DNA of 64,000 nucleotides from an uncultured delta proteobacterium (GCA_963767925.1 CAVYGB010000008.1:160001-224000); one strand, 5' to 3'; positions 3,512 to 31,127 are shown, numbered from the stretch's first letter. The notes: a model not told the origin generated them from the sequence alone. Numbers and translations are program-made.

Positions 3512-5419
3512 TCAGGCCGTCTCGAAGTCGAGGTTTCGGGTGATGCGGGTGCCTTCCTGCTCGAAGGTCCCCAGGTAGTCGGAGATGCGGGCCTTGGCCT
3601 GGCCGAGATCGATCAGGCCGAGGTTGAGATTGAGCAGGTCGATGTACCAGGGCGCCTTGCGGGGCGAGGTGACGTAGCGGCGCACGATCTCGCGGGCGAT
3701 GGGCAGCGTCGTCGCCTTCGAGTCGTCGTGCACGTCGCGGTTCCCTGCGGCCAGCAGCTTGGCGTACTCCTGCTCGAGGAGTCGATCGAAGAGGGCGGCG
3801 CCGAAGAGGTCCCCCGCCTGGCTGCCGGTCCCGGCGTCGGCCTCGCTGAGGGGGGCGCCCTTGTGCAGCCACTCCCAGAGGATGGACAGGCGGATCTCTC
3901 CGGTGGCCATGTCCTCCATGAGGTAGAGGACGTCGTCCTGGCCGAAGAAGTCGGCCGGCTTCAGGGCGGCGGCCTGGAAGCCTTGCAGGAAGGCGTTGCC
4001 GTATTGCAGAGCCACGCTGAGCAGATCCCGGGCGCCCCGCACCGTGCGGGGGGCCGCCTCCAGCGCCACCAGGGCCTCGGCCTCGGCCTCGCCGTACCCG
4101 AGCGGCGGGAAGGAACGGCCGAGCTGGTTCTCCTGGCCAGCCTTCTCCCAGACCGGCCGCACGATGTGGACCATCTTCCAGTGGGCCACCCACTTGCCGC
4201 TGGCCCCCTCGCGCTGCTCGCGCTCGGCCCCCGCCACCGCCCGCTTCATCCCGCTCGCCACCCCCGCCGCCGACCCGACCGGGATGTTGGGCTCCATGCC
4301 CCCCTGCCACAACGCAAACCGCCCGTTGCGGTCGGGCGTGTTGACCGCCCGGCGCACCCGATCCTCGTAGTTGCGCATGTACCCGTAGGTCATCGTGATG
4401 GCGTCGATGTTGGGGTTCTGAAAGCCGGGATCCCAGGCCAGCGCGTCCGACACGCTGTTGATGTAGTCCCAGCGCCCGGTGTTGAAGCCCACGAAGTGCC
4501 GCCCCAGGGCCGCCCGGATCTCCATGAGCTGGAAGCTCGCCTCGAGCTGCTCGACCAGCACGTACACCTTCACCGTCCCCGCCGGCAGGCCCAGGTGCTG
4601 CTCGAGGGTGTTGAGCAGCCGGTTCCACAGCGCCGCCTCCTCGGCGGTCTGGATCTTCGGCAGGTAGAGCACGATCGAGGCGCCGGTGCTGCGCAGGCGC
4701 TCGTGGTTGTTGACCACGTAGAGGGCGGCGTCGACGATCGACGCCGAGAACCCCATGCCGTCGGCCCAGCGCACGTGGCGGTCGTCGAGGTGCAGGCCCC
4801 GGGCCCGGAAGATCACCGTCGTGAACCCGAGCTGGCTGCGGTGGTCGTCGATGATGGCTCGCCCCAGGAAGCCGCGGGCCCAGCCGTTCATCTCCTCGGC
4901 GACCTGGGCGGCGATCTTCAGGAAGCGGGGGTCCCGATCGATGGCCAGCTTCAGGTTGCGCTGGTTGTCGAGCGACATGGTCGACACCTGGCCCAGGGCG
5001 TCCTCCCCGTCGAACATCCAGCCGTCCGCCCCCGACAGCAGGGCGTAGGCCACGTTGCGCAGGCTCGTCTCGGTGGGCTGCCCGGGGCGGGTGGCCGGTC
5101 CGGTCCCCTGCACCCACTGCCGCTGCAGGTCGGCGGGGATCTCGCCGCCGGCGAACTGGCCCTCCCGGGCCTGCTGCACGGTGAGGTCGGTCCCGGCGAT
5201 GGTGGCGCCCGGATCCAGGAAGCCGAGGCGCTGGCGCCCGCGGGCCCGCCCCTGGCGCCGGTCGAGCCGGGCCTGCATCAGCGCCCGGCGGGTCTCATCG
5301 AGGGGGGCCAGCTCGGCCAGGGCGGCCATCGCCGCGGGCGTGTAGACGTCGGGGTAAGCGCGTTCGAGGCCGCCCCGGACCTGCAGGGCCAGCGACTCGC
5401 CCAGGATGGTGTTGCTCAT
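3512..5419 (-). CDS. aceB: Malate synthase (635 aa, MSA-like)
   Basis: GAGGAG RBS before ATG 5419; [13 protein letters not shown] (catalytic Arg), [37 protein letters not shown] (catalytic Asp). Confidence 0.85.
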
Positions 5420-5484
5420 GATCTCCTCGGCGGCCGCGCGGGTCGTGCCGGCGGGCTGCGCGGTCGCCTGGGCCCAGTTTACCC

Positions 5485-6524
5485 TCAACCGGGCCGCTCG
5501 ACGCGCCCCGAGGCGTGGCGGGCGAAGCGCCCCTCCTCGCGCGGGTGGACCGGATCGTCGCTGGGCCAGGGCCAGCCACCGAACTGGGTGCGCTGGTAGT
5601 CGATCATCGCCTGCTGGATCTCGGCCCGCGTGTTCATCACGAAGGGCCCGTACTGGGCCACCGGCTCCTGGATCGGCCGCCCCTGCAGCAAGAGCAGCTC
5701 GCTCGGTCCCACGCTCCGGAGCGGCACCGGCAGGTGGGCGGCGAGCTCCGCACCCTGGGGCGCGGCCAGCACCTCGCCGGCCACGTGCAGGCGGTCGCCG
5801 CGGAAGAAGTACAGGCTGCGGTTGGTCCCAGGCTGGGCGGGGGGCAAGGTGAAGCGGGCGCCGGCCTCGAGGCGCAGGGTCCAGATGGCGACGTCGCTGT
5901 CGGGGCGGGCGGCCCAGGACCGGGGCGGCGGCGCGGGCGCCACCCGATCGCCGAGCCGTCCGGCCACCAGCGCCACCTCGGTGGCGCGCCCCTCGGCGTC
6001 GCGCTCGACCTGGCGGGGGATGGCCTCGTCCCACAACATCGAGAAGTGGGGCTCGGCCAGCTTGTCGGCCCGCGGGCAGGTTGAGCCAGATCTGGAACAG
6101 CTCGAGGGGGTTGTCCTGCTCGCGCTCGAGCAGGGGAAACATCTCGGCGTGCACGATCCCCTTGCCGGCGGTCAGCCACTGCACGTCGCCCCGCCCGAAG
6201 CGAGCGGCAGCCCCCAGCGAGTCCGAGTGGTCGATGCAGCCCGCGGCGCACGATGGTGACGGTCTCGAAGCCGCGGTGCGGGTGCTGGGGAAATCCGGGA
6301 ACCACCTGGCCGTGGTACATGCGCCAGCCCTCGCGCACGGCCGCCTCGCTGGCGAAGTCCTGTCCCAGGTCGCGCCCCGACAGCGAGGCCGCCGGCCCCA
6401 GCAGGTCGTTTCCGCGCGGGTAGGCGTCGTCGTGGTGCACGCAGAACAGGAACGGATCCGCCGTCTCCCAGGGAAAGCCGAGCGGGCGGATGCGAAGGAC
6501 GGGATTGGCGTGCGGGTCGGCCAC
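5485..6524 (-). CDS. Pirin-family protein split by two +1 frameshifts (~6237 and ~6070)
   Basis: [23 protein letters not shown], then DHSDSLG...[16 protein letters not shown]...QIWLNLP, then [13 protein letters not shown], spread over three frames. Confidence 0.85.
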
Positions 6525-6671
6525 GTCCTGTGAAACCTAGGAGACCGACCGGGCCCCCGCAACCCCGGCTCCGACGGGCGCCCGGTTGCGGACAGCGTGT
6601 CGCTCCTGGCCCGCCGTCGAGCCGATCGGGGTGGCTTCCCGACATGAAAGGCTGCCCGGTCGCGCCGCCGC

Positions 6672-6707
6672 CTGCGGATTTCGCAGGAGCCGCTGCGATT
6701 TTCGCAG
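6672..6707. promoter_or_regulatory. Two tandem palindromes CTGCG-N5-CGCAG, 21 bp apart; candidate enhancer/operator
   Basis: ctgcggatttcgcag (6672-6686) and ctgcgattttcgcag (6693-6707) in the divergent intergenic region between pirin and the two-component system. Confidence 0.5.
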
Positions 6708-6872
6708 TCACCGCGCGGGCGAGAACCGCGCGGCAACGGGAGGGGCTCGAAGCGCTCGAAGCGCCCGCTGCGCTCGAACGTCAGGCGGCGGCCCCGCGGG
6801 GCCAGGGGGTGGGGACCGGCGCCGCGGGCGGGTTTGGTATCGTCTGTGCTTCGAGTCTCGCTTCGTGCACCC

Positions 6873-8177
<1,305 letters not shown>

Positions 8178-8192
8178 TCGGGGGATCGCTGC

Positions 8193-9548
8193 ATGTCGCG
8201 CATTCTGGTGGTCGACGACGAGGAAGGGATCCGGACCTTCGTGGCCGAGGCCCTCGAGGCCGAGGGCGCCGAGATCGAGAGCGCCGCCAGCGGCGACGAG
8301 GCGGCGGCGCTGCTCGACCGCCAGGGGTTCGACGTGGTGGTGACCGATCTCAAGATGCCGGGTCGGGATGGCATGTCTCTGCTGGCGAAGGTGCGGGCCG
8401 ACCAGCCGGAGACCCAGGTGATCCTGCTGACCGCCCACGGCACCGTCGAGACCGCGGTGCAGGCCATGAAGGCCGGCGCCTTCGATTACCTGCAAAAGCC
8501 CATCGGCAGCCCCGACGAGCTGCGGCTGGTGGTGGCCCGCGCGCTCGAGCGGCGGCAGCTTTTGGCTTCGCGGGAGGGCACCACCCGGGCCGAGGCCGAG
8601 GCCACTTTTCCGCTGACCTACGGCGATCCGGCCATGACTCCCATCAAGGCCGCGCTCGACAAGGTGGCCCGCACCGACGCCACCGTGCTGCTGCTGGGAG
8701 AGACCGGCACCGGCAAGGAGGTGGCGGCGCGGGCCCTGCACGCGGCCAGCGCGCGGGCCGGGCGCCCCTTCGTGGCGGTCAACTGCGCCGCGCTCAGCGA
8801 GTCGCTGCTGGAGAGCGAGCTGTTCGGCCACGAGAAGGGGGCCTTCACGGGGGCTCACGCCCAGCGCCGGGGCCGTCTCGAGCTGGCCGAGGGCGGGACC
8901 TTCTTTCTCGACGAGGTGGGCGAGCTGAAGCTCGATCTGCAGGCCAAGCTGCTGCGGGTCCTGCAGGAGCGGCGCTTCGAGCGGGTGGGCGGCACGCGCA
9001 CCCTGGCCGCCGACGTGCGCTGGGTGGCCGCCACCAACCGCGACCTGCGCGCGATGATCGAGGCGGGGACCTTCCGCGAGGACCTCTACCACCGGCTGGC
9101 CGTCTTCCCCATCCGCCTGCCGACCCTGCGCGAACGCCCGGGCGACATCTTGCCCCTGGCCGATCTGCTCCTGCGCCGGGCCGCCGCCGAGCTGGGGCGT
9201 CCGCCGCTGCGGCTCACCGAAGAGGCCCGGGCCCGGGTGCAGGCGGCTCCGCTGCGGGGAAACATCCGCGAGCTCAAGAACATGCTCGAGCGCGCCGCCA
9301 TCCTGGCCGACGGCGGGGTGGTGCAGGCCGAGCACATCTGGCTCGACCCCTCGGGGACCGTTGGCGCGCCGGCGCCCCCCTCGGGGCCACCCCTTCCCGA
9401 GGCCTCGGGGTCCCTCGACGACCTGGAGAAGGCCGCCATCCAGCGGGCGCTGGCCGAGACCGGGGGCAACCGGCGCCGGGCCGCCGAGCGGCTGGGCATC
9501 GGCCTGCGCACCTTGTACGAAAAGCTCAAGCGCTACGACCTGAGCTAG
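8193..9548 (+). CDS. Sigma-54-dependent response regulator (NtrC family)
   Basis: REC (VVDDE, TDLKMP), [22 protein letters not shown]-terminal Fis-type HTH. Confidence 0.95.
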
Positions 9549-9746
9549 CCGGGCCCTCGCGGAGCGAGGGAACCCGGCCACTTTTGCAACCGTCTCGCAG
9601 CCATCCCTTCCCGGTTCCCCGCTCGGGGGTGGAGTGTGGAGTGTGAGCGCGGACGGATCTGTCACCGCGGGGGCGTGGACGCCGCGCTCCGCATCCGATA
9701 CGATCGCGCCGACATTTCAGAGTTTCGTTGTCGAAAGGAGATCCGC

Positions 9747-10562
9747 ATGCGCGCTTTGGCCAGTTGGGCGTTGGTTCTTGTCGTGTCGAGCGCGGCGCTG
9801 CCCGCCTGTGACCCCGGTGAGGACGGCACGAGCGACGGCGCTGCCGGCACGGGTGGAGGCGGGGGCACCGGTGGATCGGGTGGCTCCGGTGGATCGGGCG
9901 GCTCCGGCGGATCGGGCGGACGGACGCCAGACGCCCGGGCTCCCGACACGGCGGCCGGCTCGGCCTACCAGTGGATCGGCATCTTCGACAACGATAAGGT
10001 CGCCGTGTGCACCGGGAGCGGACCGGGGCCGGACATCGACTCGGTCGACCTGCGGCGGGCCGGGGCGAACATCGGTGTGGGGCTCCGGAGCTCGGCGATC
10101 TTCTCCCCCGACCGCCCCGGTGAGACAGTCAGCGCCTGCACCATGTGCGCGGGGACGACGTGCGCCCACTCCGGCACCCAGGCCCAGGCGCGCGCCGAGG
10201 GGATCCCGGACGCGATGTTTTACACGAACATGTCCGACATCGGATACATCTCGCTGAACAGCGGCGTGTTGTGGATCCAGATCGGCCAGGCCAACGGCAA
10301 CAACCCGGCCCAGGAGATCCGCTCCGGGGACACCGTGATCGTGCGCGAGGTGGATCAGGTGTACAAGGCCGAGGGCGGAGCGCCCTGGACTGGCTGCGGC
10401 TGCGTTCCCGAGAAATACGCGGCCTACGCCTACGTCACGCGGGACGTGAACGCGACCCGCGTCCAGCTCGTGCCGACCGCCTACCGCGCCGAAAACCAGA
10501 GCGCCTGCGGCGCCGTCGCCAACAACCTCGGCTGCGGCACCACCGACTTCACCGTTCCCTAG
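9747..10562 (+). CDS. Hypothetical Cys-rich lipoprotein with GGS linker
   Basis: AAGGAG RBS; lipobox LPAC; GTGGGGGTGGSGGSGGSGGSGGSGG linker; 8 further Cys. Confidence 0.75.
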   Translation: MRALASWALVLVVSSAALPACDPGEDGTSDGAAGTGGGGGTGGSGGSGGSGGSGGSGGRTPDARAPDTAAGSAYQWIGIFDNDKVAVCTGSGPGPDIDSVDLRRAGANIGVGLRSSAIFSPDRPGETVSACTMCAGTTCAHSGTQAQARAEGIPDAMFYTNMSDIGYISLNSGVLWIQIGQANGNNPAQEIRSGDTVIVREVDQVYKAEGGAPWTGCGCVPEKYAAYAYVTRDVNATRVQLVPTAYRAENQSACGAVANNLGCGTTDFTVP

Positions 10563-10595
10563 CCGCCGCTGGGCGGGGGCGACCGACCGACCGCT

Positions 10596-10625
10596 CCACC
10601 ATCCGCGCCGGCGCGCGGATGGTGG
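10596..10625. terminator. Perfect 13-bp hairpin between convergent genes (possible bidirectional terminator)
   Basis: ccaccatccgcgc-cggc-gcgcggatggtgg; no U-tract. Confidence 0.5.
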
Positions 10626-10655
10626 GCGAACCAGGCACGCCAGTACGGGTTGCGG

Positions 10656-11705
10656 CTAGACCACGTCCTCGCGTTTCACTCCGGGGAACTCGAGGATGAG
10701 GTCGCGGCCGTAGACGCCGGCGGGGGTCTGGAACCCGGCGGGCGCCTCTCCGGCGAGGGCCCGCTGGGCCAGGGCCACCGCGCTCAGGCGGGTGAGCTCG
10801 TACCCCTCGGGCACCACCAGCCGCGAGGTCACCTTCCTTCCGGCGGCGTCTGTCGCCTCTCCCCACACGAGGCTGCGACCCCGGCGGCGCGCCTCGGCCG
10901 ACGGGCCGGGAGCTCCGGCGCGGATGCGGGCCGCCAGCAGGCGCTGCACCCGCCGTAGCCGGAGCAGCGGCGCCATCAGCCGCGCCACCCGCACGGCGGC
11001 CCGGATCGCCCAGGGCACGCCGATGTAGACCTCGACGTTGGGGATCCCCGTGGTCACCGTCGCGGTGAACACGTCGCCCCAGGGGATGGCGATGGCCCGG
11101 GTGGCCCCCCGGCCGAAGTCCACCCGGATCGTCCGGTGGCCGAGCGGGACGGGGGTCAAGACCCCGTCCCGGCGGATCATGCCCTGGCTCCCGGCCGCCT
11201 CGAGCGTGCTGAGCGCCGTTCCCCGGGAGGCTTTGCCCCCCGGCTGGAACGCCAGGCGCAGGTGGGTGGCGCCGGGGAGCCGGTGGCGCAGGTGGGCCGC
11301 CAGGCAGTCCGTGGGCACGACGTCGAACCCCGCCCCGGGCAGCAACATCACGCCCGCCGCCCGCGCCTGGGCGTCCAGCCCGGCCAGGGCGGCGAAGACC
11401 GCCACCTCGCCGGTGATGTCGAGGTAGTGGGCCCGCAGGCGAAGGCAGGCCGCGGCCAGCGGACCCGCGGTCCGGGTGAAGGGCCCGGCACAGCTCAGCA
11501 GCACCGTGGCCCCGGCCAGCCCGGCGTCGACGGCCGCCGGGTCGTCCAGGGCGAAGGCCCGGGCCGGGACCCCCAGCTCGGCGGCCAGCGCCGCCAGCGG
11601 CTCGAGCCGCCGGCCCGCCAGCACCGGCCGCAGGCCACACTCCACCGCCCGCCGGGCGACCAGCTCACCCGAATAGCCATTGGCCCCGTAGATCAGCAAG
11701 CCCAT
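10656..11705 (-). CDS. Saccharopine-dehydrogenase-like NAD(P)-binding oxidoreductase
   Basis: IYGANGYSG Rossmann motif, LAGR, CAGPF, HYLDITGE, GFDVVPTD, SRGT. Confidence 0.85.
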   Translation of the reverse strand: MGLLIYGANGYSGELVARRAVECGLRPVLAGRRLEPLAALAAELGVPARAFALDDPAAVDAGLAGATVLLSCAGPFTRTAGPLAAACLRLRAHYLDITGEVAVFAALAGLDAQARAAGVMLLPGAGFDVVPTDCLAAHLRHRLPGATHLRLAFQPGGKASRGTALSTLEAAGSQGMIRRDGVLTPVPLGHRTIRVDFGRGATRAIAIPWGDVFTATVTTGIPNVEVYIGVPWAIRAAVRVARLMAPLLRLRRVQRLLAARIRAGAPGPSAEARRRGRSLVWGEATDAAGRKVTSRLVVPEGYELTRLSAVALAQRALAGEAPAGFQTPAGVYGRDLILEFPGVKREDVV

Positions 11706-11737
11706 GTCGGGCCGACGTTAGCCGAGGGGCCGCCCGC

Positions 11738-13324
11738 TCACCAGCCTGGCAAGCGCGAGCGGGCGGTGATGGTCGGATCGACGATCGCGCGCGGGAGCTC
11801 GATGGTGAAGGTCGAGCCCTTGCCCGACTCGCTCTCCACCTCGATCGAGCCGCCCATCCCCTCGACGATCTGGCGGGTGATCCAGAGCCCCAGGCCCAGC
11901 CCGCCGTAGTGCCGGCTGGACACCGCCCGCTCGAAGCGCCCGAAGATCCGCGGCTGGTCGACGGCGGCGATGCCGATCCCGCGATCCACGACCCGCAGGC
12001 GGGCCCGGGCCTCGGTCCCCACCACCTGCACGTGGATGGGCTGGTTGCCCCCGTATTTCACGGCGTTCGATAGCAGGTTGTTGAGCACCTGCTCGAGCCG
12101 GAGGCGATCCCAGGTGCCCGGCAGCTCGGCGGGCAGGTCGGTCGTGAACTCGGTCTCGTCGGCCGGCGCCGGGTTGACCTCGCCGGGCCGCCGGCCGGCC
12201 GCCTGCCGCCAGCGCTCGACCGTGCCCTGCACGAGGTCGACGAGGTCGAACTCGCTGCAGTCGAAGCGCAGGCGCCCCGAGTTGATGCGGGAGACGTCGA
12301 GCAGCAGCTCGACCAGCTCGGTCAGCCGCTGGGCCTGCTCGGCCACCGCGGCCGCGTTGCTGTCGAGCCGCCCGCTGCGCAGGGCGGGGCCGGGGGATCG
12401 CTTCAGGGTGCGGTGCAGGTTGTCGATCTGGAGCTGCAGCGCGGTCAAGGGGGTCTTGAGCTCGTGGGAGGCGATCGACAGGAACTCGTCGCGCACCTGC
12501 ACCGCGCGCCGCAGCTCGCTCTCGAGGGCCCGCCGCTCGGTGATGTCGATGCAGGAGCCGATGAAGCCGGCGAAGGTCCCGTCCGGCATGTAGCGGGGGG
12601 TGCCCCGGTCGAGGATCCAGCGGTGCGCCCCGTCCCGCCGCCGCAGGCGGTACTCCAGCTCGAAAACTCGCCGCTCGTTGAAGGCCTCGACGTAGGTGTC
12701 GAGGCAGCGTTGCAGGTCCTCGAAGTGCACCCCCTCGGCCCAGCCCACCCCCCACTCCTGTTCGAGCGTGCGGCCGGTAAAGTCGAGCCAGGTCTGGTTG
12801 AAGAAGGTGCACATCCCGTCCGGCTCGGACATCCAGAGCAGGACCGGAGCCGCGTCGGCCATGGTGCGGAAGCGCCCCTCGGTCTCCTTCACCTGCTCGG
12901 CAGCCCAGTGGGCCTCGCTGACGTCGCGGATGATGGCGATGCCGCCCTGGATCGCGCCGGCGTCGTCGCGCAGCGGCCCGTAGCTGCCATCGAAGAAGCC
13001 CCGGCGCAGGGTGCGGGAGACGACGAAGGGGCGGGCCCGCGACCAGACCTCCTCGCCCGCCAGCGCCCGCTGGTAATACTGGTCCTCGCCGATGTCGACG
13101 AGGAAGGGAAACAGGTCGAAGGCCCGCTGGCCCAGCACCTCGCTGGCCGGCAGCCCCGACAGGCGCTCCATGGCCGCGTTCCAGTAGGTGTAGCGGCACT
13201 CCCGATCGAAGGCGAGGATGCCGTCGGCGCTCTGGGCCAGCACGCGGGCGGCGAGCGGCAGGATGAGCGGGGTGGGGGGCGCGGCGGCCGGCGCGGGCAG
13301 GGCGCGCTGGCCGGCGGTGGTCAT
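11738..13324 (-). CDS. Cytoplasmic PAS-PAS histidine kinase, translationally coupled to the SDIMO beta subunit
   Basis: Two PAS domains (DGILAFD..YWNAAME; WMSEPDG..FFNQTW..EYRLRRRDG..W..DITER), ASHELKTPL, NLLSNAVKY, GLGLGL; no TM segment; ATGA overlap with the beta stop. Confidence 0.9.
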   Translation of the reverse strand: MTTAGQRALPAPAAAPPTPLILPLAARVLAQSADGILAFDRECRYTYWNAAMERLSGLPASEVLGQRAFDLFPFLVDIGEDQYYQRALAGEEVWSRARPFVVSRTLRRGFFDGSYGPLRDDAGAIQGGIAIIRDVSEAHWAAEQVKETEGRFRTMADAAPVLLWMSEPDGMCTFFNQTWLDFTGRTLEQEWGVGWAEGVHFEDLQRCLDTYVEAFNERRVFELEYRLRRRDGAHRWILDRGTPRYMPDGTFAGFIGSCIDITERRALESELRRAVQVRDEFLSIASHELKTPLTALQLQIDNLHRTLKRSPGPALRSGRLDSNAAAVAEQAQRLTELVELLLDVSRINSGRLRFDCSEFDLVDLVQGTVERWRQAAGRRPGEVNPAPADETEFTTDLPAELPGTWDRLRLEQVLNNLLSNAVKYGGNQPIHVQVVGTEARARLRVVDRGIGIAAVDQPRIFGRFERAVSSRHYGGLGLGLWITRQIVEGMGGSIEVESESGKGSTFTIELPRAIVDPTITARSRLPGW

Positions 13325-14298
13325 CGCGGCTCCCCCAGGCCGAGGTCCTCCAGCCAGGCGCGGACCGAGCCCTCGACGCGGGCGAGGGCGGGGGCGCCCG
13401 CCGGCCCCCAGAAGCTGGCCAGCGCCGCCGTCGCCTCGCGGGCCGGCGGCAGCCAGGTCCGCACCCAGCCCTGCAAGGTGGCCTGGTTGTCGGCCGACTC
13501 GGCCGCCACCAGCCGCACCAGCGCCGCTGCCCAGGCCCGGTGCCAGCGGCCGTCTTCGGCCAGCGAGGCGAGGATCTCCCCGAGGAAGAAGTCCTGCCGG
13601 TCGCGGGCCAGGGTGGCCAGCTCATCGAGGGCGAGCTGGTCGAGCAGGGGCTTGAGGCAGAGGCAGAGGGCCACGAACGATTCGCCCCAGTCGTAGCGGA
13701 CCAGGCCTTGTTCGAGCGTGCGCCGCAGGGGCTGCCAGACGGGAGCTTCCTGCCAGTCGCCGAGGGCGGCGCCGGCAAACCCGGGCCCGGTGTGGCGGAG
13801 CTGCCCCAGGCGGTGGGCGATGCGGTGGATCCGCCGCATCTCGTCCGCCGCCTGGAACATGGCCACCAGGGTGAGGCGCCCGCTGGGCGCCATCTGGCCG
13901 ACGTAGGCGGCCTGCATCTGCAACCCATGCCAGAAGTAACGCAGGGGCGACAGGAGGCCATCGAGCAACGCCCGCCACTCGGGCGCCAGCTTGCGATCGT
14001 GGTCGGTGCTCTCGATCGAGCTCATGAGCGCGTCGAGGTGCCGCTCGCGATCGGCCTGCAGAGAGGTGTAAGAGGAGTAGGTTGTCTCGCGGGGATCGGC
14101 GAAGCGTTCCCAGTCGGTGCAGCGCAGGGCCGCCTCTCGCTGGTACCGCTGATAAAAAGGTCCCAGCGGGACGTCGATCGCGAAGCCCCGCTCGACGTGA
14201 TAGAGCAGGCGCGAGCTGACGATGTCGTATTCGCTCGGCACCTTCCGGCGCTGCTCCAGGTGCGAATAGGTGCGCAGGGGCGGGATGGTCCGGCTCAC
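13321..14298 (-). CDS. tmoE: SDIMO hydroxylase beta subunit (TmoE/IsoE-like)
   Basis: PLRTYSHL..RKVPSEYDIVS, W..FADP..TY..Y...Q, FQAADEMR, W...PVWQPLRR..E..L..YDWGESF. Confidence 0.88.
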   Translation of the reverse strand: MSRTIPPLRTYSHLEQRRKVPSEYDIVSSRLLYHVERGFAIDVPLGPFYQRYQREAALRCTDWERFADPRETTYSSYTSLQADRERHLDALMSSIESTDHDRKLAPEWRALLDGLLSPLRYFWHGLQMQAAYVGQMAPSGRLTLVAMFQAADEMRRIHRIAHRLGQLRHTGPGFAGAALGDWQEAPVWQPLRRTLEQGLVRYDWGESFVALCLCLKPLLDQLALDELATLARDRQDFFLGEILASLAEDGRWHRAWAAALVRLVAAESADNQATLQGWVRTWLPPAREATAALASFWGPAGAPALARVEGSVRAWLEDLGLGEPR

Positions 14299-14594
14299 GT
14301 CCAGAAGGCCTCCTCCTGGGACATCGAGAGGGTCCCGGCGAAGGAGACCATCACCTCCTCGAGATCGGCCGGCAGGTGAAAGCTCTCGCCCAGGTGTCGC
14401 TCGACCGCCGAGCGGGTGAGGTGGCAGCGATATTTGACCAGCACGCGCAGGTAGGCCCCCCGATCGATGACCTCCACCTCGCCGTTCAGCTCGCGGATGG
14501 CGGCCAGCACCGCCTGGCTGCGGGGGCCGGCCGAGAGGACCGGCCCCACCACCGCCGTCGCCCCGCCTTCACCGGCTGGAGCTGTCCGCCCCAT
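14295..14594 (-). CDS. tmoD: SDIMO effector/coupling protein (TmoD/MmoB/DmpM family); start uncertain (14594 or 14615)
   Basis: VGPVL..G....AVLAAIRELN..VEVIDRGAYLRV......LTR..VE..LG..F.LP.DLE..MVSFAG. Confidence 0.88.
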   Translation of the reverse strand: MGRTAPAGEGGATAVVGPVLSAGPRSQAVLAAIRELNGEVEVIDRGAYLRVLVKYRCHLTRSAVERHLGESFHLPADLEEVMVSFAGTLSMSQEEAFWT

Positions 14595-14892
14595 CGACGT
14601 CGATCCAGATGGCATCGTCTTGCACCTTTACTTCGAAGCGCCGGAGGGCGACTTTCCGGGGGTTGAGGCCCGCGCCGGTGCGGGCGTCGTATTGCCACTC
14701 GTGGGCCGCGCAGGTCAGGGTGGTCCCCACCAGCCGCCCCCGGTGCAGCGGAAACGCCTGATGCGGGCAGCGGTCGGAGAAGGCGCTCACCTGGCCGAGG
14801 GTGTTGATCAGCACGACCGGCTGTTCCGCCACCGAGCAGGGGCGCATCTCTCCCTCCCACAGCTCGTCCAGGGCGCAGACCCGCCGGAGCAT
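14569..14892 (-). CDS. tmoC: Rieske [2Fe-2S] ferredoxin (TmoC-like)
   Basis: LDELWEGEM, CPHQ...CAAHEWQYD (CxH...CxxH); TGATG overlap with the gamma subunit. Confidence 0.9.
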   Translation of the reverse strand: MLRRVCALDELWEGEMRPCSVAEQPVVLINTLGQVSAFSDRCPHQAFPLHRGRLVGTTLTCAAHEWQYDARTGAGLNPRKVALRRFEVKVQDDAIWIDVDGADSSSR

Positions 14893-15131
14893 CAGGGCGT
14901 CTCCTCCACGACGTCGATGCGGTCGAGCGGTCCGATCTCGGCCTCCTGGACGGTGGTGCCCGCCGGCAGGCGGCGCCCGCGATGGATCACAACCGGACGG
15001 GCCAGGGGAGCTACCCGTACGGAAGCGGCGGACTGGAGCTTGTGGCACAAGGTGGCGGTGTCGTCCTCGGGCTGGGCGAGCACGAGCATCCCGATCGTGT
15101 CGCCGGCCAGAAAGCCGTAAAGGGGGATCAC
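14892..15131 (-). CDS. tmoB: SDIMO hydroxylase gamma subunit (TmoB-like, 79 aa)
   Basis: GTG overlapping the alpha stop (GTGA); IPLYGFLAGD....LVL....D...TVQEAEIGPLDRIDV. Confidence 0.8.
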   Translation of the reverse strand: MIPLYGFLAGDTIGMLVLAQPEDDTATLCHKLQSAASVRVAPLARPVVIHRGRRLPAGTTVQEAEIGPLDRIDVVEETP

Positions 15132-16606
15132 CGCTCTCCCCGATCGATGAACCCGTAGCGCCCGCCGTGGGCGTCTTTGCCCCAGGAGTGGTAGTCGAGG
15201 CCGAAGTACTCCCGGAGCATCGCCACCAGGTTGGCGGGGGCCTCCCCCGCGAGCACCCGCCGCACGACGTCCTTGTGCCGCTTGTAGCGCTCGGGCTGGC
15301 TCTCGAAGATGACCCGGCAGGGCTCCGAGCAGAAGATGAGCCGCTGGCCCTCCCGGTCCACCACGACGGCGCTGTTGTGGCCCGGCCGCCCGCCGCACAG
15401 CACGAGCTGGCACAGGCAGCAGAAGGTCACGATGGCCGATCCGTGCACGGCGAAGTCGTTGCCCGGGTCGGCCTTCTGCCAGCGGGAGGTGATGCGCGAC
15501 CAGACCGGATCGAGCTCCGGCCAGGAGCCGGGGTACTTGCGGCGCAGCCAGGCCCGCTCCTCGGGGCCGGGCAACACGAAGTTGAACCAGACCGAGGCCC
15601 GGTAGGTGTAGGCGCTCGCGTAGACCATGTGGTGGTAGTAGTCGAGCGACTCGAGGAAGGTGTCCCAGTACCAGGGTTTGCGCAGGCCGTGCTGCTCGAG
15701 GGCGGGCACGAACTGGCCGATCACCCACTCCTGCATGAACTCCTTGAAGGACTGGGTGCGGGCGTGCAGGGGGGTCAGGTAGTCCATGCTGAAGCCGGTG
15801 ACCACCGCGAACATCAGCCAGCTCCGCCAGAACCACTTGTCGATGAGCTGCTGAGCGTACTCCCGATCGTGCTCCACCACGATGCGCAGCACCGCCGAGC
15901 CGATCTGGGCGTGGCGGGCCTCGTCGGTCTGGATGCTGGTCACCATCTTCTCGAACATCTTGTCGCCCGCGCCGTGGGCCATCGCCGCCAGCCCCACGAA
16001 CTGCAGGTTGGTGAACCCGGTCTCGAAGACGAAGTGGGTGGCGATGGCGAACTCGATGGCGTCGCAGCCGAGCAGCAGCTCGTCGGTGAGGTGACGGGCG
16101 GCGATCGCTACCCAGTTGTTGGAGTGGTAAAAGCGCCAGGTCCAGTCGAACTGGCGATCCCAGCCCACCAGCTCGTGCATGAGCAGCAGGGGGATCTGGG
16201 TGTGGCGGAACTCGTCGAGCGCGCCCAGCAGTGAGGTGCTGCGCCAGGCGCTGCTGCGCCCGAAGCGGGCGCCCCGCAGATTGCCGATCACCGCGGCGAA
16301 CTCGGCCAGGGGCAAGGTGGCGGCGTGCAGCTTCAGCCCGTTGACCCACTCGGGCGCCAGCTTGGCGTAGTCGTCGGGCTTGCCGAGGGCGTCGCGAACC
16401 GCGTAGACCGAGGCGTCCTTGTCGCGCTGCTTGATGACGTATTCGGCGTAGTGCGTCCGGTAAGGCTCCTGCCAGCCGGCCCAGTCGGCGGCGGGCAGCC
16501 AGGGCTGCCCGGACAGCGCCGCCGGGAAGACCTCCTCCTCGCGCACGTAGGAGAACCGCCAGTCGAGCTGACCGGCCAGATCGAGCCAGACGTCGCGTCC
16601 CAGCAC
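15128..16606 (-). CDS. tmoA: SDIMO hydroxylase alpha subunit (TmoA/XamoA/IsoA-like) with C-terminal YHS-like domain
   Basis: Di-iron ligands E102, DE132FRH135, FE195TGFTN, QTDE229ARH232; SMDYLTP..R..SFKEFM.EW; KPWYWD. Confidence 0.93.
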   Translation of the reverse strand: MLGRDVWLDLAGQLDWRFSYVREEEVFPAALSGQPWLPAADWAGWQEPYRTHYAEYVIKQRDKDASVYAVRDALGKPDDYAKLAPEWVNGLKLHAATLPLAEFAAVIGNLRGARFGRSSAWRSTSLLGALDEFRHTQIPLLLMHELVGWDRQFDWTWRFYHSNNWVAIAARHLTDELLLGCDAIEFAIATHFVFETGFTNLQFVGLAAMAHGAGDKMFEKMVTSIQTDEARHAQIGSAVLRIVVEHDREYAQQLIDKWFWRSWLMFAVVTGFSMDYLTPLHARTQSFKEFMQEWVIGQFVPALEQHGLRKPWYWDTFLESLDYYHHMVYASAYTYRASVWFNFVLPGPEERAWLRRKYPGSWPELDPVWSRITSRWQKADPGNDFAVHGSAIVTFCCLCQLVLCGGRPGHNSAVVVDREGQRLIFCSEPCRVIFESQPERYKRHKDVVRRVLAGEAPANLVAMLREYFGLDYHSWGKDAHGGRYGFIDRGER

Positions 16607-16626
16607 CAGGACAAGCCCCCCGTCGC

Positions 16627-16632
16627 ATTATA
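16627..16632 (-). promoter_or_regulatory. Candidate sigma70-type -10 box (TATAAT) of the SDIMO operon
   Basis: Perfect TATAAT 20 nt upstream of the alpha start in a very GC-rich context; no recognisable -35. Confidence 0.45.
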
Positions 16633-16774
16633 CCCACGCGGATCCCCTCGCCGCTTCGATCCCGTCCGGCAAGGAGGAGTCCAGTCCGCACCGTACGGGG
16701 TGCTCACTCGTCGGGGTCGGGTGGTCTCCTGGTCCTCCTTTTGGTCTGCCTTGTGCCGTAGTAGAAGACCCCAC

Positions 16775-18502
16775 ATGAAGAGCCCCGCGGTCGCGGCCGT
16801 GCCCCGTCGTGTCTGCCGCTTTCTGTCCTGCTGCACGCTGACGTTCCTCGTCGTCCTGCCGAACGTCCTGCCGAACGTGGCGACAGCCGCGCCCAAGGCT
16901 CCTCCGGCGCCCAAGCTCGTCGTCCTGCTGGCGGTCGATCAGATGCGCGGCGACTACATCGAGCGCTACGGCGGCACCTGGAAACACGGCCTGCGCACCC
17001 TCGTGGATCGGGGGGCCCTGTTTCGCAAGGCCCGCTTCCCCTACCTCGCCACCGTGACCTGCCCGGGCCACGTCACCCTCGGCACCGGCGCTTACCCCCA
17101 CACCCACGGAATGGTCCTCAACGGCTGGTGGGACCGGGCCCAGAACAAGCTTGTCGAGTGCACCGCCGACCCCAGCTCGGCCATCGTTTCGTACGGGGAG
17201 TCGCGGGCCCGCAACGGGGACAGCGCGAAGAACATGCTGGTCCCCACCCTGGCCGACGAGATGAAGGCCCAGCTCACCCCGACCCCCCGGGTCGTGTCGT
17301 TTTCGCACAAGGCCCGCTCGGCCATCGGCCTCGCCGGGCACAAGCCGGACCTCGTCACCTGGTACGAGGACGGCGGCTGGGTCACCGCCCAGGCCTTCAC
17401 CGCCGAGCCCAGCCCGGTGGTGGCCAAGCTGATCAAGGACAACCCCATCGACGCCGTGATGGGCAGCGCCTGGGAGAAGATCCTCCCCGCGGCCGCCTAC
17501 AAATACAGCGACGACGCGCCCGAGGAGCCCTCTTCCTCCCAGTGGACGCGCACCTTCCCCAAGACGCTGGTCTACGCCAACGCCACCACCACCCCCGGCA
17601 ACCCCGCGGCCGCCTCCGGCTCCCGGCGCTATTCGCTGTGGGAGCGCAGCCCGCTGCCCGACGATCTGCTGGGTCGGTTCGCCGCGGGCGCCATCACCGA
17701 GCTGAAGCTCGGCCAGGGGCCCGGCACCGATTTCCTGGCGGTCAGCTTCTCCGCCCTCGACACCGTGGGGCACGCCTACGGCCCCCTCAGCCACGAGGTG
17801 CAGGACGTGCTCGCCCGCCTCGACCGGGTGCTGGGCAAGCTCCTCGAGACGCTCGACAAGCAGGTGGGGCGCGGCAAATACGTCCTGGCCCTCAGCGCCG
17901 ATCACGGCGTGGCCGTGTACCCCGAACGCCTCAAGGCCGAGGGCAAAGACGCCGGCCGGATCGCCATGCGCGAGCTGGCCGAGAAGGTCAACGCCGCGCT
18001 GGAGGAGGAGATCGGCCCCGGCAAACACATCGCGACCATCAGCTACACCGACGTCTACTTCGCGCCGGGCGTGCTCGAGAAGCTCGAGGCCAAGCCGGGC
18101 GCGGTCGACCGGGTCAAGGCGGTGGCGGCCGGGCTGGCCGGGGTGGCGGCGGTGTTCTCCACCCGCGAGCTCCGGGATCTGGCCCGAGCCACCGATCCCA
18201 CCCAGCGGGCCGCCACCCTCAGCCACTACGCGGGCCGCAGCGGCGACCTGATCGTCGTGCCGAAGAGCAACTGGCTCAACACCAGCGCCGGCACCACCCA
18301 CGGCACGCCGTACGACTACGATCAGCACGTGCCGGTGCTGTTTTACGGGGCTGGCATCCGCCGGGGAAAGTACGACGTTCCGGCCAGCCCCGCGGACATC
18401 GCGCCCACCCTGGGCAGCCTGGTGGGCGTCACCCTGGGCAAGGCCGAGGGGACCGTGCTGAAGCAGGCCCTGCTCAAGCCGCCTGCTGCGCCCCGGCCCT
18501 GA
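16775..18502 (+). CDS. PafA-like alkaline phosphatase superfamily enzyme
   Basis: Signal peptide; AVDQMRGDY, TVTCPGH (Thr nucleophile), DTVGHAYG, SADHG, THG. Confidence 0.88.
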   Translation: MKSPAVAAVPRRVCRFLSCCTLTFLVVLPNVLPNVATAAPKAPPAPKLVVLLAVDQMRGDYIERYGGTWKHGLRTLVDRGALFRKARFPYLATVTCPGHVTLGTGAYPHTHGMVLNGWWDRAQNKLVECTADPSSAIVSYGESRARNGDSAKNMLVPTLADEMKAQLTPTPRVVSFSHKARSAIGLAGHKPDLVTWYEDGGWVTAQAFTAEPSPVVAKLIKDNPIDAVMGSAWEKILPAAAYKYSDDAPEEPSSSQWTRTFPKTLVYANATTTPGNPAAASGSRRYSLWERSPLPDDLLGRFAAGAITELKLGQGPGTDFLAVSFSALDTVGHAYGPLSHEVQDVLARLDRVLGKLLETLDKQVGRGKYVLALSADHGVAVYPERLKAEGKDAGRIAMRELAEKVNAALEEEIGPGKHIATISYTDVYFAPGVLEKLEAKPGAVDRVKAVAAGLAGVAAVFSTRELRDLARATDPTQRAATLSHYAGRSGDLIVVPKSNWLNTSAGTTHGTPYDYDQHVPVLFYGAGIRRGKYDVPASPADIAPTLGSLVGVTLGKAEGTVLKQALLKPPAAPRP

Positions 18503-26776: not shown

Positions 26777-29700
26777 TCAGCCATCTTTCGTCGAGGTTAA
26801 ACTCTCCTGCACCACGGCCAGGATCTGGCCCGGCTGCACCGGGCGGCCGGCGACGGCGCGGATCTCCCGCACGGTGCCCGCGCTCGTCGCCGCCACGCTG
26901 ATCTCGGTCTTCATCGCCTCGACGATCGCGAGCGGCTCGCCCTCGGCCACCCGGTCACCCGGGGCCTTGAGGATCTTCCAGAGGTTGCCCGCCACTGGGC
27001 TGAGCACGGGCAGGCAGCCGGGCGGCAAGTCGGCCGCAGGCGGCGGCGGGTCGGCCTCGACGGGATCGTCCGCCGCCAGGTCCTGGCCGGCGGCGGCCCA
27101 GCGCTCGCGCTCGGCGAGGAAGGCCGCCTGCTGCTGGCGCTTGAAGGCGGCGATCTCCCGGGCGCTCTCCCCCAGCAGCCGCTGGTAGGCGGGGAAGTCG
27201 AAGATCCCCTCCTCGATCCGGATCGGGGTGCGGCCGAACAGGAACCCCGCCCGCATGGCCAGCAGCTCGTCCGCCGCCACCGGGTAAAAGCGGATGCGAT
27301 CGAAGGGGCGCAGCAGCCAGGGTTTGCCCTCGCGAAAGGGCGGGGTCTGGCGGTGCGTGTTCCAGACCTGCACCGTCCGGCCGACGAACTGGTAGCCGCC
27401 GGGTCCCTCCATGCCATAGATGCACAGGTAGGCGCCGCCGATCCCCACCGCGTTCTCCGGGGTCCAGGTGCGGGCCGGGTTGTATTTGGTGGTGACGAGC
27501 CGGTGCCGGGGATCGAGGGGCGTGGCCACCGGCGCCCCCAGGTAGACGTCGCCCAGGCCGAGCACGAGGAAGCTGGCGTCGAAGACGATGCCGCGGACGT
27601 CGGCGGTGCTCGCCAGGCCGTTGATGCGGCGGATGAACTCGATGTTGCTCGGGCACCAGGGCGCGTCGCTGCGCACCACCCGCTGGTACTTCTCGATGGC
27701 CTCCAGGGTGGCTGGATCCTCCCAGGACAGCGGCAGGTGCACGGTGCGGCTGGGGATGCGCAGGCTCTCGGGTCCGGGCAGGTCGGCCTCCAGGGCCTTC
27801 AGGGTCTGCAGCAGGGCGGGGGTGGAGAGGCGCCCGGGATCGTGGTGGATCTGCAGCGAGCGGATCCCCGGCGTCAGGTCGACGATCCCCGGCAGGGCCC
27901 GGGCGGCCAGCGCCTCCATGAGGGCGTGGGCCCGCAGGCGCAGGGCCAGGTCGAGGGTGGGGGGGCCGTATTCGACGAGCAGATAGTCGTCGCCCGCTCG
28001 CCGGTACACGACTGGCACCGGGCCCCGGCTGCCCTCGGCCAGGATGGGAGAGTCCTGCTCGATCGGCAGGGCGCGGCCGGCGGGGCGGGGGCGGGGGGGC
28101 TCGAGCTCGTCGATCCAGGATTGCTGATCGGCGAGCAGGGCCGCCCCCTCCTCCGGCGTGATTCGCCGGAAGTGGACCCGGTCGCCGGCCTTGAGCTGGC
28201 CCAGCTTCCAGCGCTCGGCCTGGACCACTGTGGCGGGGCAGACGAACCCGCCGAGGCTGGGCCCGTCGGGGCCGAGGAGGATCGGCATGTCGCCGGTGAA
28301 GTCCACCGTGCCGACCGCGTAGGCGTTGTCGTGGATGTTCGAGGGGTGCAGGCCGGCCTCGCCGCCGTCGGAGCGGGCCCAGGTCGGCCGGGGCCCGATC
28401 AGGCGGACGCCGGTGCGGTCGGAGTTGTGGTGCACGCGGAACGAGGTGGCGAAGAAGGTCTCGATGTCCGCGTCGGTGAAGAAGTCGGGCGCCCCGTGGG
28501 GGCCGTACAGCACGGCCAGATCCCAGCTCCGGGGGTATTCGGGGAGGGCCCGCAGGGGGCTGGTGAGGGGGGCGTGGACGGCGGCGCTGCTGCCCACCCG
28601 CAGGACGTCCCCCGGTCGCAGGGCCCGGCCGCCGTGGCCCCCGAAGCCACCGAGCAGGAAGGTCGCCCGGCTGCCGAACACCTCGGGCACGTCGAGCCCG
28701 CCGCGCACCGCCAGGTAAGCGCGCGCGCCCGCCCGGGGCCCCGCGCTCGCCACCGCCCCCAGGCGCAGCAGCCCACCCGCCGGCACGGTGAAGGCGCAGC
28801 CCTCGGGGACCGGCCGTCCGTCGAGCCGGGCCGCGATCTCGGACCCGGCCAGCGCCACCACCGCCTGCCGGCGAAAGCGCAGGGTGGGCCCGGCCAGCGC
28901 CAGCTCGAGGGCGGGGGCGCCAGGGGCGTTGCCCACCAGGCGGTTGGCCACCCGGAAGGCGAAGTCGTCCATCGGGCCCGAGGGGGGGACGCCCACCGCC
29001 CACAGGCCGAGCCGGCCCGGCCAGTCCTGCACCGTGGTCTGGGTGCCGCCGTCGACGACGTCGATGGCCGCCGCGTCCGGCTGGATCTCGCCCAGCAGGT
29101 CGGTCCGCACGTCGCCCCGGGCGAAGGCGGGGTGCTCGACCACCACCTGCAGGTAGGCGAGGTTCGTCTCGATGCCGTGGATGCGGGTCTGCGCCAGGGC
29201 GTCGGCCAGGCGGGCCAGCGCCTGGCTCCGGTCGGCGCCGGTGGCGATGATCTTCACCAGCAGCGGGTCGTAGTGGGGCGTGATCTCGAGCCCCGGCTCG
29301 ATCCAGCCGTCGCAGCGCACGCCGGGGGGCAGCTCGACCGCGGTGAGGCGCCCGGTGCTGGGCTGGAAGCCCTTGCCCGCGTCCTCGGCGTAGACCCGGG
29401 CCTCCACCGCGGCTCCCCGCGGCCCGGGAGCCCGGGCGGGCAGGGTGAACCCGCCGGCGGCCTGGCGGATCATCCACTCGACGAGATCGATCCCGGTGAC
29501 CGCCTCGGTCACCCCGTGCTCGACCTGCAGCCTCGTGTTGACCTCGAGGAAGAAGACCTCCTGCGAGCGCCCGTCCATCACGAACTCGACCGTGCCGGCC
29601 GAGGCGTAGCGCACGGCCTGCCCCATGCGCACCGCCGCCTCCTGCAGGGCCTGGCGCACCTCCGGCCGCAGGCCCGGGGCGGGCGCCTCTTCGATCACCT

Positions 29701-30406: not shown

Positions 30407-30461
30407 CCTGCGATTGGCTCCGTTCAGCAGACGCTCCCGGGAGAGCGGTTCGAGTCCTCGT

Positions 30462-31115
30462 CTAGATGGGGTTCCAGACCAGGAGCCGGATGGGGGTGGG
30501 GTTGTAGGCGTTGCAGGGGTTGTTGAGCTGGGGGCAGTTGGAGATCAGGCACAACACGTCCATCTCCGCCCGCAGCTCGACGTATTTGCCGCCCGCCGAC
30601 ACGCCGTCCTCGAAGGTGAGCTTGCCCTCGACCGTCACCGGGACGTTCATGAAGAAGTTGATGTTGGCGGTGAGGTCTCGCTTGCCCAGCGGGAGGTTCG
30701 CCCTGGCCGCCGCCAGCAGGAAGCTGTCCCGGCAGTTGTGCATGTTGCGGGTGTGGTGGCCGTAGCGGACGGTGTTGCTCTCGGCCGAGCAGGCGCCGCC
30801 CAGGGTGTCGTGGCGCCCGCAGAGGTCGGCCACGATGGTCAGCAGCTTGCGGTTGCTGGTGGAGCGCAGCTCGCTCCCGGTGCTGAGGTAGAGGTTCCCC
30901 TGGGCCCGGATCGTGTCGACCGCGCTGTACCGTTCCCGGGGGTCCTCGGCGTTGAAGAACAGGGTGTCGACCGCCTGGTTTCCCTCGAGGTCGACGATGC
31001 GCAGGACCTGGCCCCGGTTGATCCGTCGCAGCCAGGCCTCGCCGGCCGGCAGCACCGCGTCCAGCGCGGCCCGGGCGGGATCGAGGCGGCTCTCCTTGAA
31101 GTTGAAAGAACGCAT
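30462..31115 (-). CDS. cgdB: Carboxyguanidine deiminase subunit B (urea carboxylase-associated protein 1)
   Basis: [48 protein letters not shown]. Confidence 0.9.
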
Positions 31116-31127
31116 GATCGCTCCGGC

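Follow-up and report, generated by a model that had tools for sequence, protein, structure and literature searches.

A clade of toluene monooxygenase-type gene clusters with a PAS histidine kinase at the position of the reductase

Background

Why does a gene cluster for a toluene monooxygenase (TMO) end with a sensor kinase where a reductase would be expected? This question is raised by six genes of an uncultured delta proteobacterium. They encode the components of a soluble di-iron monooxygenase (SDIMO) and, in sixth place, a cytoplasmic histidine kinase with two PAS domains. By the window we mean the whole stretch of 64,000 nucleotides that was analysed (G000:C8:160001-224000); it comes from an assembly of 9.34 Mb with about 72% G+C and a completeness of 84%. 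In what follows, genomes, contigs, loci and single proteins carry our own numbers (G, C, L and P, respectively).

SDIMOs have been studied as catabolic enzymes and as biocatalysts, and a 2025 review of their diversity (PMC11825192, in the excerpts used) describes TMO operons as six genes of which the last encodes the reductase. In the large clade that we describe, the reductase is replaced by a kinase. A sequence-only reading of the window had proposed that its monooxygenase belongs to a signalling module rather than to a catabolic pathway, and we return to this proposal in the Discussion.

Results

One clade of clusters carries the kinase

Open reading frames (ORFs) and their junctions were read directly from the sequence, and domains were assigned by Pfam. 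The minus strand carries six consecutive genes from 11738 to 16606, in the order alpha, gamma, Rieske, effector, beta and kinase (Table 1). Both the order of the five SDIMO genes and all junctions are as the sequence-only reading had given them. The alpha stop and the gamma start overlap in GTGA, as do effector and beta, the gamma stop meets the Rieske ATG in TGATG, the Rieske and effector genes overlap by up to 47 nt (depending on the uncertain start of the effector), and the beta stop overlaps the kinase ATG in ATGA.

Two sets of genomes were searched: 40 genomes of relatives, and species-representative genomes, which gave 79 loci. Seven of the 40 relatives have an orthologue of the alpha subunit (66-84% identity), and in all seven the six genes are colinear. 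The distribution of alpha identity over the 79 loci is bimodal: 24 loci lie at 65-84%, two lie at 50%, and no other locus exceeds 44%. A quick maximum-likelihood tree was built from 85 TMO alphas, with no outgroup from other SDIMO groups; in it, the kinase-linked alphas form one group of 28 rows with a support of 100 in the Shimodaira-Hasegawa-like approximate likelihood ratio test (SH-aLRT). The group sits on a long stem as sister to two Mycobacteriales sequences, a long-branch join that is uncertain. The kinase-linked TMO clade is monophyletic and undescribed. It comprises 24 species-level genomes, mostly metagenome-assembled genomes (MAGs) of Polyangia or Myxococcota; all its members are uncultured MAGs or draft genomes, and counts over such related genomes are not independent. 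At least 120 clusters of a large protein collection are 67% or more identical to the alpha of the window.

A few clade loci, with 50-55% G+C, bear the labels Bdellovibrionales or Turneriella; further loci come under the names Fibrobacteres, Planctomycetota, Rhodocyclaceae or Obscuribacterales. If these host labels hold, the cassette has moved between phyla together with its kinase.

The two sister sequences at 50% alpha identity (L058, from Mycolicibacterium iranicum, and L060) have neither a reductase within 9 kb nor a kinase after beta. The next genes in L060 encode a regulator of the PucR type and a peroxiredoxin of the AhpC type.

The kinase gene directly follows the beta gene

The sequence-only reading had proposed tabulating the gene after beta among orthologous clusters. 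This gene is the kinase in 26 of the 26 clade loci that extend past beta (the window and four loci of relatives included); three further clade loci are cut by contig ends before this position. A kinase of the clade type follows beta in none of the 55 other TMO loci. The same reading had named, as a refutation, an outcome in which a normal reductase is usual in orthologous clusters and only this assembly has the adjacent kinase. The opposite was found, since the adjacency is general in the clade and no TmoF-like reductase was found there (see below).

The stop of beta and the start of the kinase overlap by exactly 4 nt in 15 of these 26 loci and by other lengths in eight; in the remaining three there is a gap, of 7 nt in one and of 76 and 116 nt in two. 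From this overlap we predict that the kinase is co-transcribed with, and translationally coupled to, the beta subunit. Even in the rearranged locus L051 the effector-beta-kinase block is still together. The linkage outlasts divergence down to a minimum alpha identity of 60.6% and a whole-kinase identity of about 30%, in hosts of 50-72% G+C.

What happens to the kinase when the enzyme is lost can be seen in one genome. Among the 40 relatives, orthologues of the sensor region of the kinase (at least 51% identity) occur only in the seven that have the enzyme and in a decayed remnant in G020 (L034, G020:C89, about 9730-11298). In this remnant, alpha residues 1-129 stand directly next to kinase residues 97-510, which are in a different frame, the kinase carries a further frameshift and the enzyme genes are deleted; a REC-kinase-REC hybrid gene on the 5' side is intact. 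G020 is one case of kinase decay once the enzyme is gone.

Apart from the sixth gene, the cluster is of the toluene monooxygenase type

The alpha subunit matches T4moA (3dhg), the alpha subunit of toluene 4-monooxygenase (T4MO), with an E value of 6.5e-121 over residues 4-481. It is 40-44% identical to the alphas of Pseudomonas, Burkholderia, Xanthobacter and other named TMO hosts, which is above the cut-off of 35% identity for an SDIMO group (as given in the excerpts of PMC11825192), and on the tree it groups beside the 55 other TMO alphas. Its carboxylate-bridged di-iron site is built from two E..EXXH motifs, which supply four Glu and two His; these six iron ligands (E102, E132, H135, E195, E229 and H232) align with those of T4moA and are invariant in all 85 aligned alphas. 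T201, N202 and Q228 are also aligned to T4moA and, like the iron ligands, are invariant in 28 of 28 clade rows. On the other hand, the pocket differs from that of T4moA by I100L, G103A, Q141P and L192T (T in 26 of 28 clade rows), and the position of F176 is variable in the clade. The TMO gene order (alpha, gamma, Rieske, effector, beta) is found here and in the clade loci. In all features that were tested, the sixth gene excepted, the enzyme is an SDIMO of the TMO type and, with all iron ligands intact, it looks catalytically competent.

The cysteines of the C-terminal YHS domain (alpha residues 396, 399, 426 and 430) are invariant in the clade and in its sister clade. The full set of four occurs in only 17 of the 55 other TMO alphas and is absent from T4moA; it looks like a retained metal site. 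The alpha and beta genes are the sole Phenol_Hydrox pair of the genome, and an NCBIfam equivalog was found for none of the subunits.

The clusters lack a reductase

For the reductase search with tblastn, we used as queries four Pfam-confirmed TmoF proteins from loci of Pseudomonas benzenivorans, Xanthobacter agilis, Burkholderia aenigmatica and Mycobacterium helveticum; L100, L101, L076 and L064 served as positive-control loci, and a TmoF-type reductase was defined as the combination of Fer2, FAD_binding_6 and NAD_binding_1. A TmoF-like reductase was found in 27 of the 55 TMO loci outside the clade, 26 of them near full length, and in none of the 24 named clade loci or of the relatives' loci. 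This bears out the earlier observation that no FAD/[2Fe-2S] reductase lies near the cluster, and extends it to the genome, which has no full-length TmoF homologue either: tblastn gave only partial matches to two FNR-like genes without Fer2, and of three NAD_binding_1 and five Fer2 matches found by Pfam none coincide. The two FNR-like genes (C8:150669-151460 and about C8:1169331-1170029) have a homologue in no clade locus. A reductase-less cluster is the rule in this clade, yet it is not confined to it.

Where could the electrons come from? A candidate donor in trans is a 528-aa fusion of Rieske, Pyr_redox_2 and Reductase_C domains (G000:C13:205971-207554; L114:151-1737, plus strand). Its orthologues occur in seven of the seven relatives that have the enzyme and in 10 of the 33 that do not; it is widespread across this genome family, a general-purpose gene rather than a dedicated one. 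It is a possible electron donor for the reductase-less monooxygenase.

The kinase and its PAS domains

The kinase has a PAS-A domain (about residues 27-139) and a PAS-B domain of the PAS_3 type (about residues 150-265), followed by HisKA and HATPase_c. It is a classical HisKA kinase (HisKA 3.8e-12, HATPase_c 2.8e-29), with H, N, G1 and G2 boxes, and its best PDB match is HK853 (1.9e-29). No hydrophobic segment was seen by inspection.

The two PAS domains behave very differently. PAS-A has a mean identity of 31.9% and is absent in L029, L038 and L059, probably also in L052 and L053. The constant part of the kinase is PAS-B, which is kept even where the transmitter is of the HisKA_2/HWE type (L052, L053) or where a receiver is fused to the kinase (L051). 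Over 25 members, its mean pairwise identity is 70.7%, compared with 68.1% for alpha, 52.5% for the effector, 48.5% for Rieske and 47.8% for beta. Within PAS-B (window 12500-12907, minus strand) all 25 sequences have C33 and C119, and C68 belongs to the nearly invariant class (at least 90%).

We considered whether this conservation and the three cysteines, which are uncommon among 10 paralogous PAS domains from the same genome, mark PAS-B as a sensor specific to the clade. This was ruled out, as PAS-B belongs to a widespread and slowly evolving PAS_3 subfamily, which spans kinases of Polyangia, cyanobacteria and Planctomycetota and often forms tandem arrays. Unrelated multi-PAS kinases from cyanobacteria, Tepidisphaeraceae and others (P0124, P0137, P0142) are 53-67% identical to PAS-B and have the same cysteines; across the subfamily, those at positions 33 and 119 are conserved and the one at 68 is usually present. 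Since the same domain is found in unrelated kinases, its high conservation in the clade is a trait of the subfamily. For the same reason PAS-B is unlikely to form a pocket tailored to a hydrocarbon; more likely, it senses a general cue or mediates a protein contact. A structural model of PAS-B (mean predicted local distance difference test score, pLDDT, of 75.7, the N-terminal third being poor) gave only generic PAS, LOV and ARNT matches at 16-23% identity in a Foldseek search of the PDB.

Receivers and other genes around the cassette

Flanks were scanned at 23 clade loci. In 12 of them a gene with a receiver domain (REC) is directly adjacent to the cassette or fused with it, in various forms (Table 1), and none of these adjacent receivers has a DNA-binding domain. 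Nor is a DNA-binding regulator directly adjacent in any of the 23 scanned loci. In the 9.3 Mb of the window's genome there are 306 receiver candidates, of which 150 are scored matches, so adjacency by chance should be far rarer than seen, with the reservation that the loci are related and the flank calls crude. We also tried to find the cognate regulator in this genome by homology: the adjacent receivers of the other loci are heterogeneous and have no clear orthologue here (best 48%).

The sequence-only reading had found no cognate response regulator nearby. This holds for immediate adjacency; 2.2 kb beyond the kinase, however, there is a convergent NtrC-type sigma-54 response regulator (8193-9548, plus strand) with a kinase of its own (6834-8177, plus strand). 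At a distance of a few kb from clade cassettes, serine/threonine kinases and sigma-54 activators are also found repeatedly. Otherwise the flanks differ between clade loci, without conservation. The 400 nt 5' of alpha were searched for a sigma-54 promoter at 29 loci; only L036 had a match, a loose one, and the window had none.

The lack of ring-cleavage and epoxide genes, which had been noted for the vicinity of the cluster, was found again in the flanks of the window and of the scanned clade loci. In the whole genome, no catechol 2,3-dioxygenase scored above the cut-off (best 22.9 bits against 320), and there is one weak match of the intradiol type.

As a side observation, pairs of CCP_MauG di-haem cytochrome c peroxidases flank an NtrC-type regulator 1-4 kb past the kinase in L040 and L041, and AhpC-type peroxiredoxins are neighbours of the cluster both in L050 and in L060 of the sister clade. 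These neighbours may link the cassette to peroxide.

Comparison with known systems

The order of the monooxygenase genes is common to the window and to TmoABCDEF of Pseudomonas mendocina KR1, which encode T4MO (TMO are group 1 in the excerpts of PMC11825192 and group 2 in older schemes). In contrast to T4MO, there is a kinase at the tmoF position, no tmoF-type reductase was found in the cluster or in the genome, residues of the pocket are altered, and no catabolic neighbours were found. The excerpts of PMC11825192 mention Myxococcota only for group 7; the terms "histidine kinase", "sensor" and "two-component" do not occur in them, nor does this clade. Full-text searches of the literature on SDIMOs or toluene monooxygenases in Myxococcota or Polyangia, with a histidine kinase, did not find the arrangement.

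TodS is a double kinase with two PAS domains and an internal receiver, and is paired with the adjacent DNA-binding regulator TodT. As in TodS/TodT and TmoS/TmoT, a cytoplasmic PAS kinase is here genetically tied to a hydrocarbon oxygenase operon. Unlike TodS and TmoS, it has a single HisKA/HATPase_c module and no receiver, and there is no adjacent DNA-binding regulator in the 23 loci scanned. TodS binds toluene in its first PAS domain (PMC8534201, in the excerpts used), whereas here the first PAS domain is dispensable. In addition, the kinase gene appears to be translationally coupled to that of an enzyme subunit.

The operon of soluble methane monooxygenase (sMMO) keeps its reductase MmoC; more generally, TodS and MmoS have partner regulators, and their enzymes keep their reductases. 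The MmoS/MmoQ system of Methylococcus capsulatus is a PAS-PAS kinase system tied to sMMO, in which MmoS carries FAD in PAS-A, acts in the copper switch of sMMO and is thought to sense redox rather than substrate (all from the excerpts of PMC8534201). Here, too, a tandem PAS-PAS kinase is encoded together with a soluble di-iron monooxygenase; its PAS-A is poorly conserved. No MmoS chain is among the best 60 of 75 PDB sequence matches of the kinase.

A further parallel in gene context is found in two TMO clusters of Binatia (L093 and L095, about 9001-15526), where a PAS kinase also follows and no TmoF-like reductase lies within 9 kb. However, their genes are arranged as alpha-beta-Rieske-effector, and their kinase, at only 27-28% identity, forms a classical pair with the NtrC-type sigma-54 regulator that comes next; on the tree, their alphas form a separate clade. 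Given MmoS/MmoQ (PMC8534201, in the excerpts used) and these Binatia clusters, what the sequence-only reading had listed as known was too narrow; in addition, several other TMO lineages have no reductase within 9 kb. Kinases tied to hydrocarbon oxygenases were known already, and what is new is a TMO clade with a kinase at the reductase position.

Discussion

A proposed enzyme-coupled sensing module

What, then, is the kinase for? To the reading that is best supported we give an even chance: the cluster would be an enzyme-coupled sensing module, with electrons supplied in trans and a kinase that reads the state of the enzyme and signals to receivers. Here the self-contained six-gene cassette combines a four-component di-iron monooxygenase (alpha-beta-gamma hydroxylase, Rieske ferredoxin and effector), which has no reductase of its own, with a soluble PAS kinase that would be co-translated. 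Electrons would reach the Rieske protein from a reductase encoded elsewhere, for which the C13 fusion is the candidate. The kinase would read the state of the enzyme and not a hydrocarbon directly through a tailored pocket, either because its PAS_3 domain docks on the hydroxylase or by way of a redox, oxidant or electrophile cue made by turnover. It would pass its phosphate to receivers (single REC, REC-EAL, GAF-REC-GGDEF or hybrid kinases), which would be unlinked in this genome. The enzyme would then be the input device of a signalling pathway, and may feed back on its own expression.

While function is read from context throughout, this context fits a signalling module better than a catabolic operon, because the kinase follows beta in all 26 loci, no TmoF was found, catabolic genes are not conserved nearby, and receivers are adjacent in 12 of 23 loci. 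The proposal of a signalling module in the sequence-only reading is therefore supported in part, by the conserved linkage and the adjacent receivers; on the other hand, the constant PAS domain is of a widespread type, with no evident ligand sensor. Kinases that read the activity of a partner by direct contact exist, for example BceS with BceAB and DcuS with DctA, where the partners are membrane transporters. We know of no such co-sensing kinase that works with a soluble multicomponent oxygenase.

Potentially, the coupling could be physical. The prediction of a kinase-hydroxylase complex, which had been suggested in the sequence-only reading, was made with alpha, beta and PAS-B, each chain with its own alignment. 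The median score is 0.56 (runs 0.62, 0.42 and 0.56), and the best of three controls scored 0.00. The runs share at least 82% of their contacts, with a partner pLDDT of at least 86, and the mark for weak support that was passed is reached by 116 of 157 solved complexes and by two of 215 mismatches. The model thus lends weak support to a docking of PAS-B on the alpha/beta hydroxylase. Furthermore, a 726-aa protein from an ENA metagenome (P0233) has the last ~215 residues of beta in frame with a PAS-PAS kinase whose PAS-B is 81% identical; a search for further beta-kinase fusions gave only this one protein, on one contig.

Taken to its end, docking would make the hydroxylase the sensory input of a phosphorelay: the kinase would dock by PAS_3 and turn turnover, that is, the presence of an inert hydrocarbon, O2 and reducing power together, into the phosphorylation of receivers, cyclic di-GMP (c-di-GMP) proteins or hybrid kinases. 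We regard this stronger version as tentative and less likely than not.

Several findings weigh against a sensing module. At least the lack of a reductase is not peculiar to the kinase-linked clade: 28 of the 55 other TMO loci have none within 9 kb, and the same is true of Binatia, Acidimicrobiales and the Mycobacteriales sister clade. With an assembly that is 84% complete, a reductase or catabolic genes could simply be missing from it. PAS-B and its cysteines are not specific to the cassette, as 7577 proteins match at E <= 1e-30. Orphan two-component genes are ordinary in myxobacteria (PMC4603909, in the excerpts used), hence an operon regulator that is not linked to its operon would be ordinary as well. 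The flank genes were called with a crude filter on the G+C content of third codon positions (GC3). As for docking, the score lies in a weak band, in which wrong results outnumber right ones except for guesses that were already probable; at 0.60 or less the mark is reached by only 18 of the 157 solved complexes and by both mismatches. The fold gave no interface, and with own alignments for each chain it falls outside the calibration of the score. Finally, the fusion in P0233 may be an assembly indel at the overlapping stop and start rather than natural.

Alternative explanations

The main rival explanation is that of an ordinary catabolic or co-metabolic monooxygenase with an operon-specific kinase that, like TodS and TmoS, senses a substrate or inducer and activates the operon by way of an unlinked DNA-binding response regulator, the reductase and the pathway genes being scattered in the genome. 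It is a serious candidate, whose probability we put clearly below even. The toluene-binding PAS domain of TodS and the example of MmoS show that kinases can be tied to oxygenase operons (PMC8534201, in the excerpts used), and the Binatia TMO clusters have a PAS kinase and an NtrC-type regulator at their end. Myxobacteria are rich in two-component genes, of which about one third are orphans (PMC4603909, in the excerpts used); NtrC-type regulators are found within 2-5 kb in the window, L030, L040 and L041, and clusters without a reductase also exist in other TMO lineages. Yet the 23 scanned loci have no directly adjacent DNA-binding regulator, the 29 upstream regions no sigma-54 motif except the loose match in L036, PAS-A is poorly conserved or absent, and PAS-B is generic, with no evident hydrocarbon pocket. 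Conserved catabolic neighbours and, in the genome, a catechol 2,3-dioxygenase were not found either. The enzyme-coupled module and the operon-specific regulator are not mutually exclusive.

Alternatively, the kinase might have nothing to do with signalling and, through a cofactor in its PAS domain, be part of the electron path, or replace the reductase as a structural subunit. Its tmoF position, the predicted translational coupling to beta, the weak docking on alpha/beta (0.56 against 0.00) and the cysteines of PAS-B (C33 and C119 invariant in 25 of 25 sequences, C68 nearly so) would suit such a role. Nevertheless, we consider it very improbable: the kinase has no flavin or NAD(P)H reductase domain, its intact H, N and G boxes and the receivers adjacent in many loci point to real signalling, and the same PAS subfamily with the same cysteines occurs in hundreds of ordinary kinases.

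That the linkage has no functional meaning, the kinase having been captured once by the ancestor of the clade and carried along passively, agrees with the single change needed on the alpha tree and is still hardly credible, since the linkage has outlasted deep divergence, hosts of 50-72% G+C from several labelled phyla, the rearrangement of L051 and the exchange of the transmitter in L052 and L053, and since G020, which has lost the enzyme genes by deletion, has a frameshifted kinase.

Should the coupling prove functional, this clade would be a case of an oxygenase used as a sensor, would provide a natural biosensor that converts hydrocarbon into phosphorylation, and would show how such enzymes draw electrons without a dedicated reductase. 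If docking is true as well, the kinase would be the first to sense flux through coupling to a soluble multicomponent oxygenase, and predatory soil bacteria would gain a means to sense volatile hydrocarbons. If the kinase is only an operon regulator, the clade nevertheless represents a TMO subgroup that had not been described and whose active-site pocket is altered.

Features of the locus and minor observations

Table 1. Genes and sites of the cluster in the window, and receiver genes directly adjacent to or fused with the cassette at other clade loci
Feature	Position in window, or loci	Strand	Evidence or remark
SDIMO hydroxylase alpha subunit, 492 aa, TmoA-like, with C-terminal YHS domain	15128..16606	-	Pfam Phenol_Hydrox 2.6e-59, YHS
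TmoB-like gamma subunit, 79 aa, GTG start	14892..15131	-	Pfam TmoB 8.5e-9
Rieske [2Fe-2S] ferredoxin, 107 aa, TmoC-like	14569..14892	-	Pfam Rieske 2.3e-17; CPH and CAAH ligand motifs
Effector/coupling protein, <=106 aa, start uncertain	14295..14615	-	Pfam MmoB_DmpM 2.1e-17 over residues 23-105
Hydroxylase beta subunit, 325 aa, GTG start	13321..14298	-	Pfam Phenol_Hydrox 2.2e-57
Cytoplasmic histidine kinase, 528 aa, PAS-PAS-HisKA-HATPase_c	11738..13324	-	Pfam; H/N/G1/G2 boxes in translation
Saccharopine-dehydrogenase-like NAD(P)-binding protein, 32 nt past the kinase	10656..11705	-	Pfam Sacchrp_dh_NADP 9.3e-10
TATAAT -10-like hexamer, 20 nt ahead of the alpha GTG	16627..16632	-	candidate promoter with short leader
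Stand-alone REC after kinase	L036, L040, L056		
REC-EAL adjoining cassette	L041		
GAF-REC-GGDEF adjoining cassette	L029		
REC directly before alpha	L046		
Orthologous REC-kinase-REC hybrids ending at alpha start	L040, L041, L042, L045		also before the G020 remnant, outside the 12 loci
Other hybrid kinases adjoining cassette	L037, L052, L053		
Receiver fused to kinase	L051		

Hexamers similar to TATAAT or TACAAT are found 13-20 nt before the start in several clade loci. A consensus promoter scan of 10300-17000 gave no full -35/-10 promoter, and three terminator-like sites that are uninformative. Among the other clade loci, only that of G001 also has the saccharopine-dehydrogenase-like gene on the 3' side of the kinase; possibly this gene ends the transcript, in this genus alone.

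Elsewhere in the window, a urea-carboxylase-like protein of 1209 aa with biotin carboxylase, CT_A_B, CT_C_D and biotinyl domains (26777-31877, minus strand) adjoins two DUF1989 genes, with an isochorismatase-family gene nearby. An open frame of 1193 aa (3512-7093, minus strand) matches Pirin around residue 300 and, from residue 759 on, malate-synthase domains; it is probably two merged genes or a frame with an over-long start. Finally, there is an ORF of 2021 aa (40804-46869, minus strand) whose coding bias is strong (GC3 of 0.97) and which contains receiver-domain matches at C8:200429-201166.

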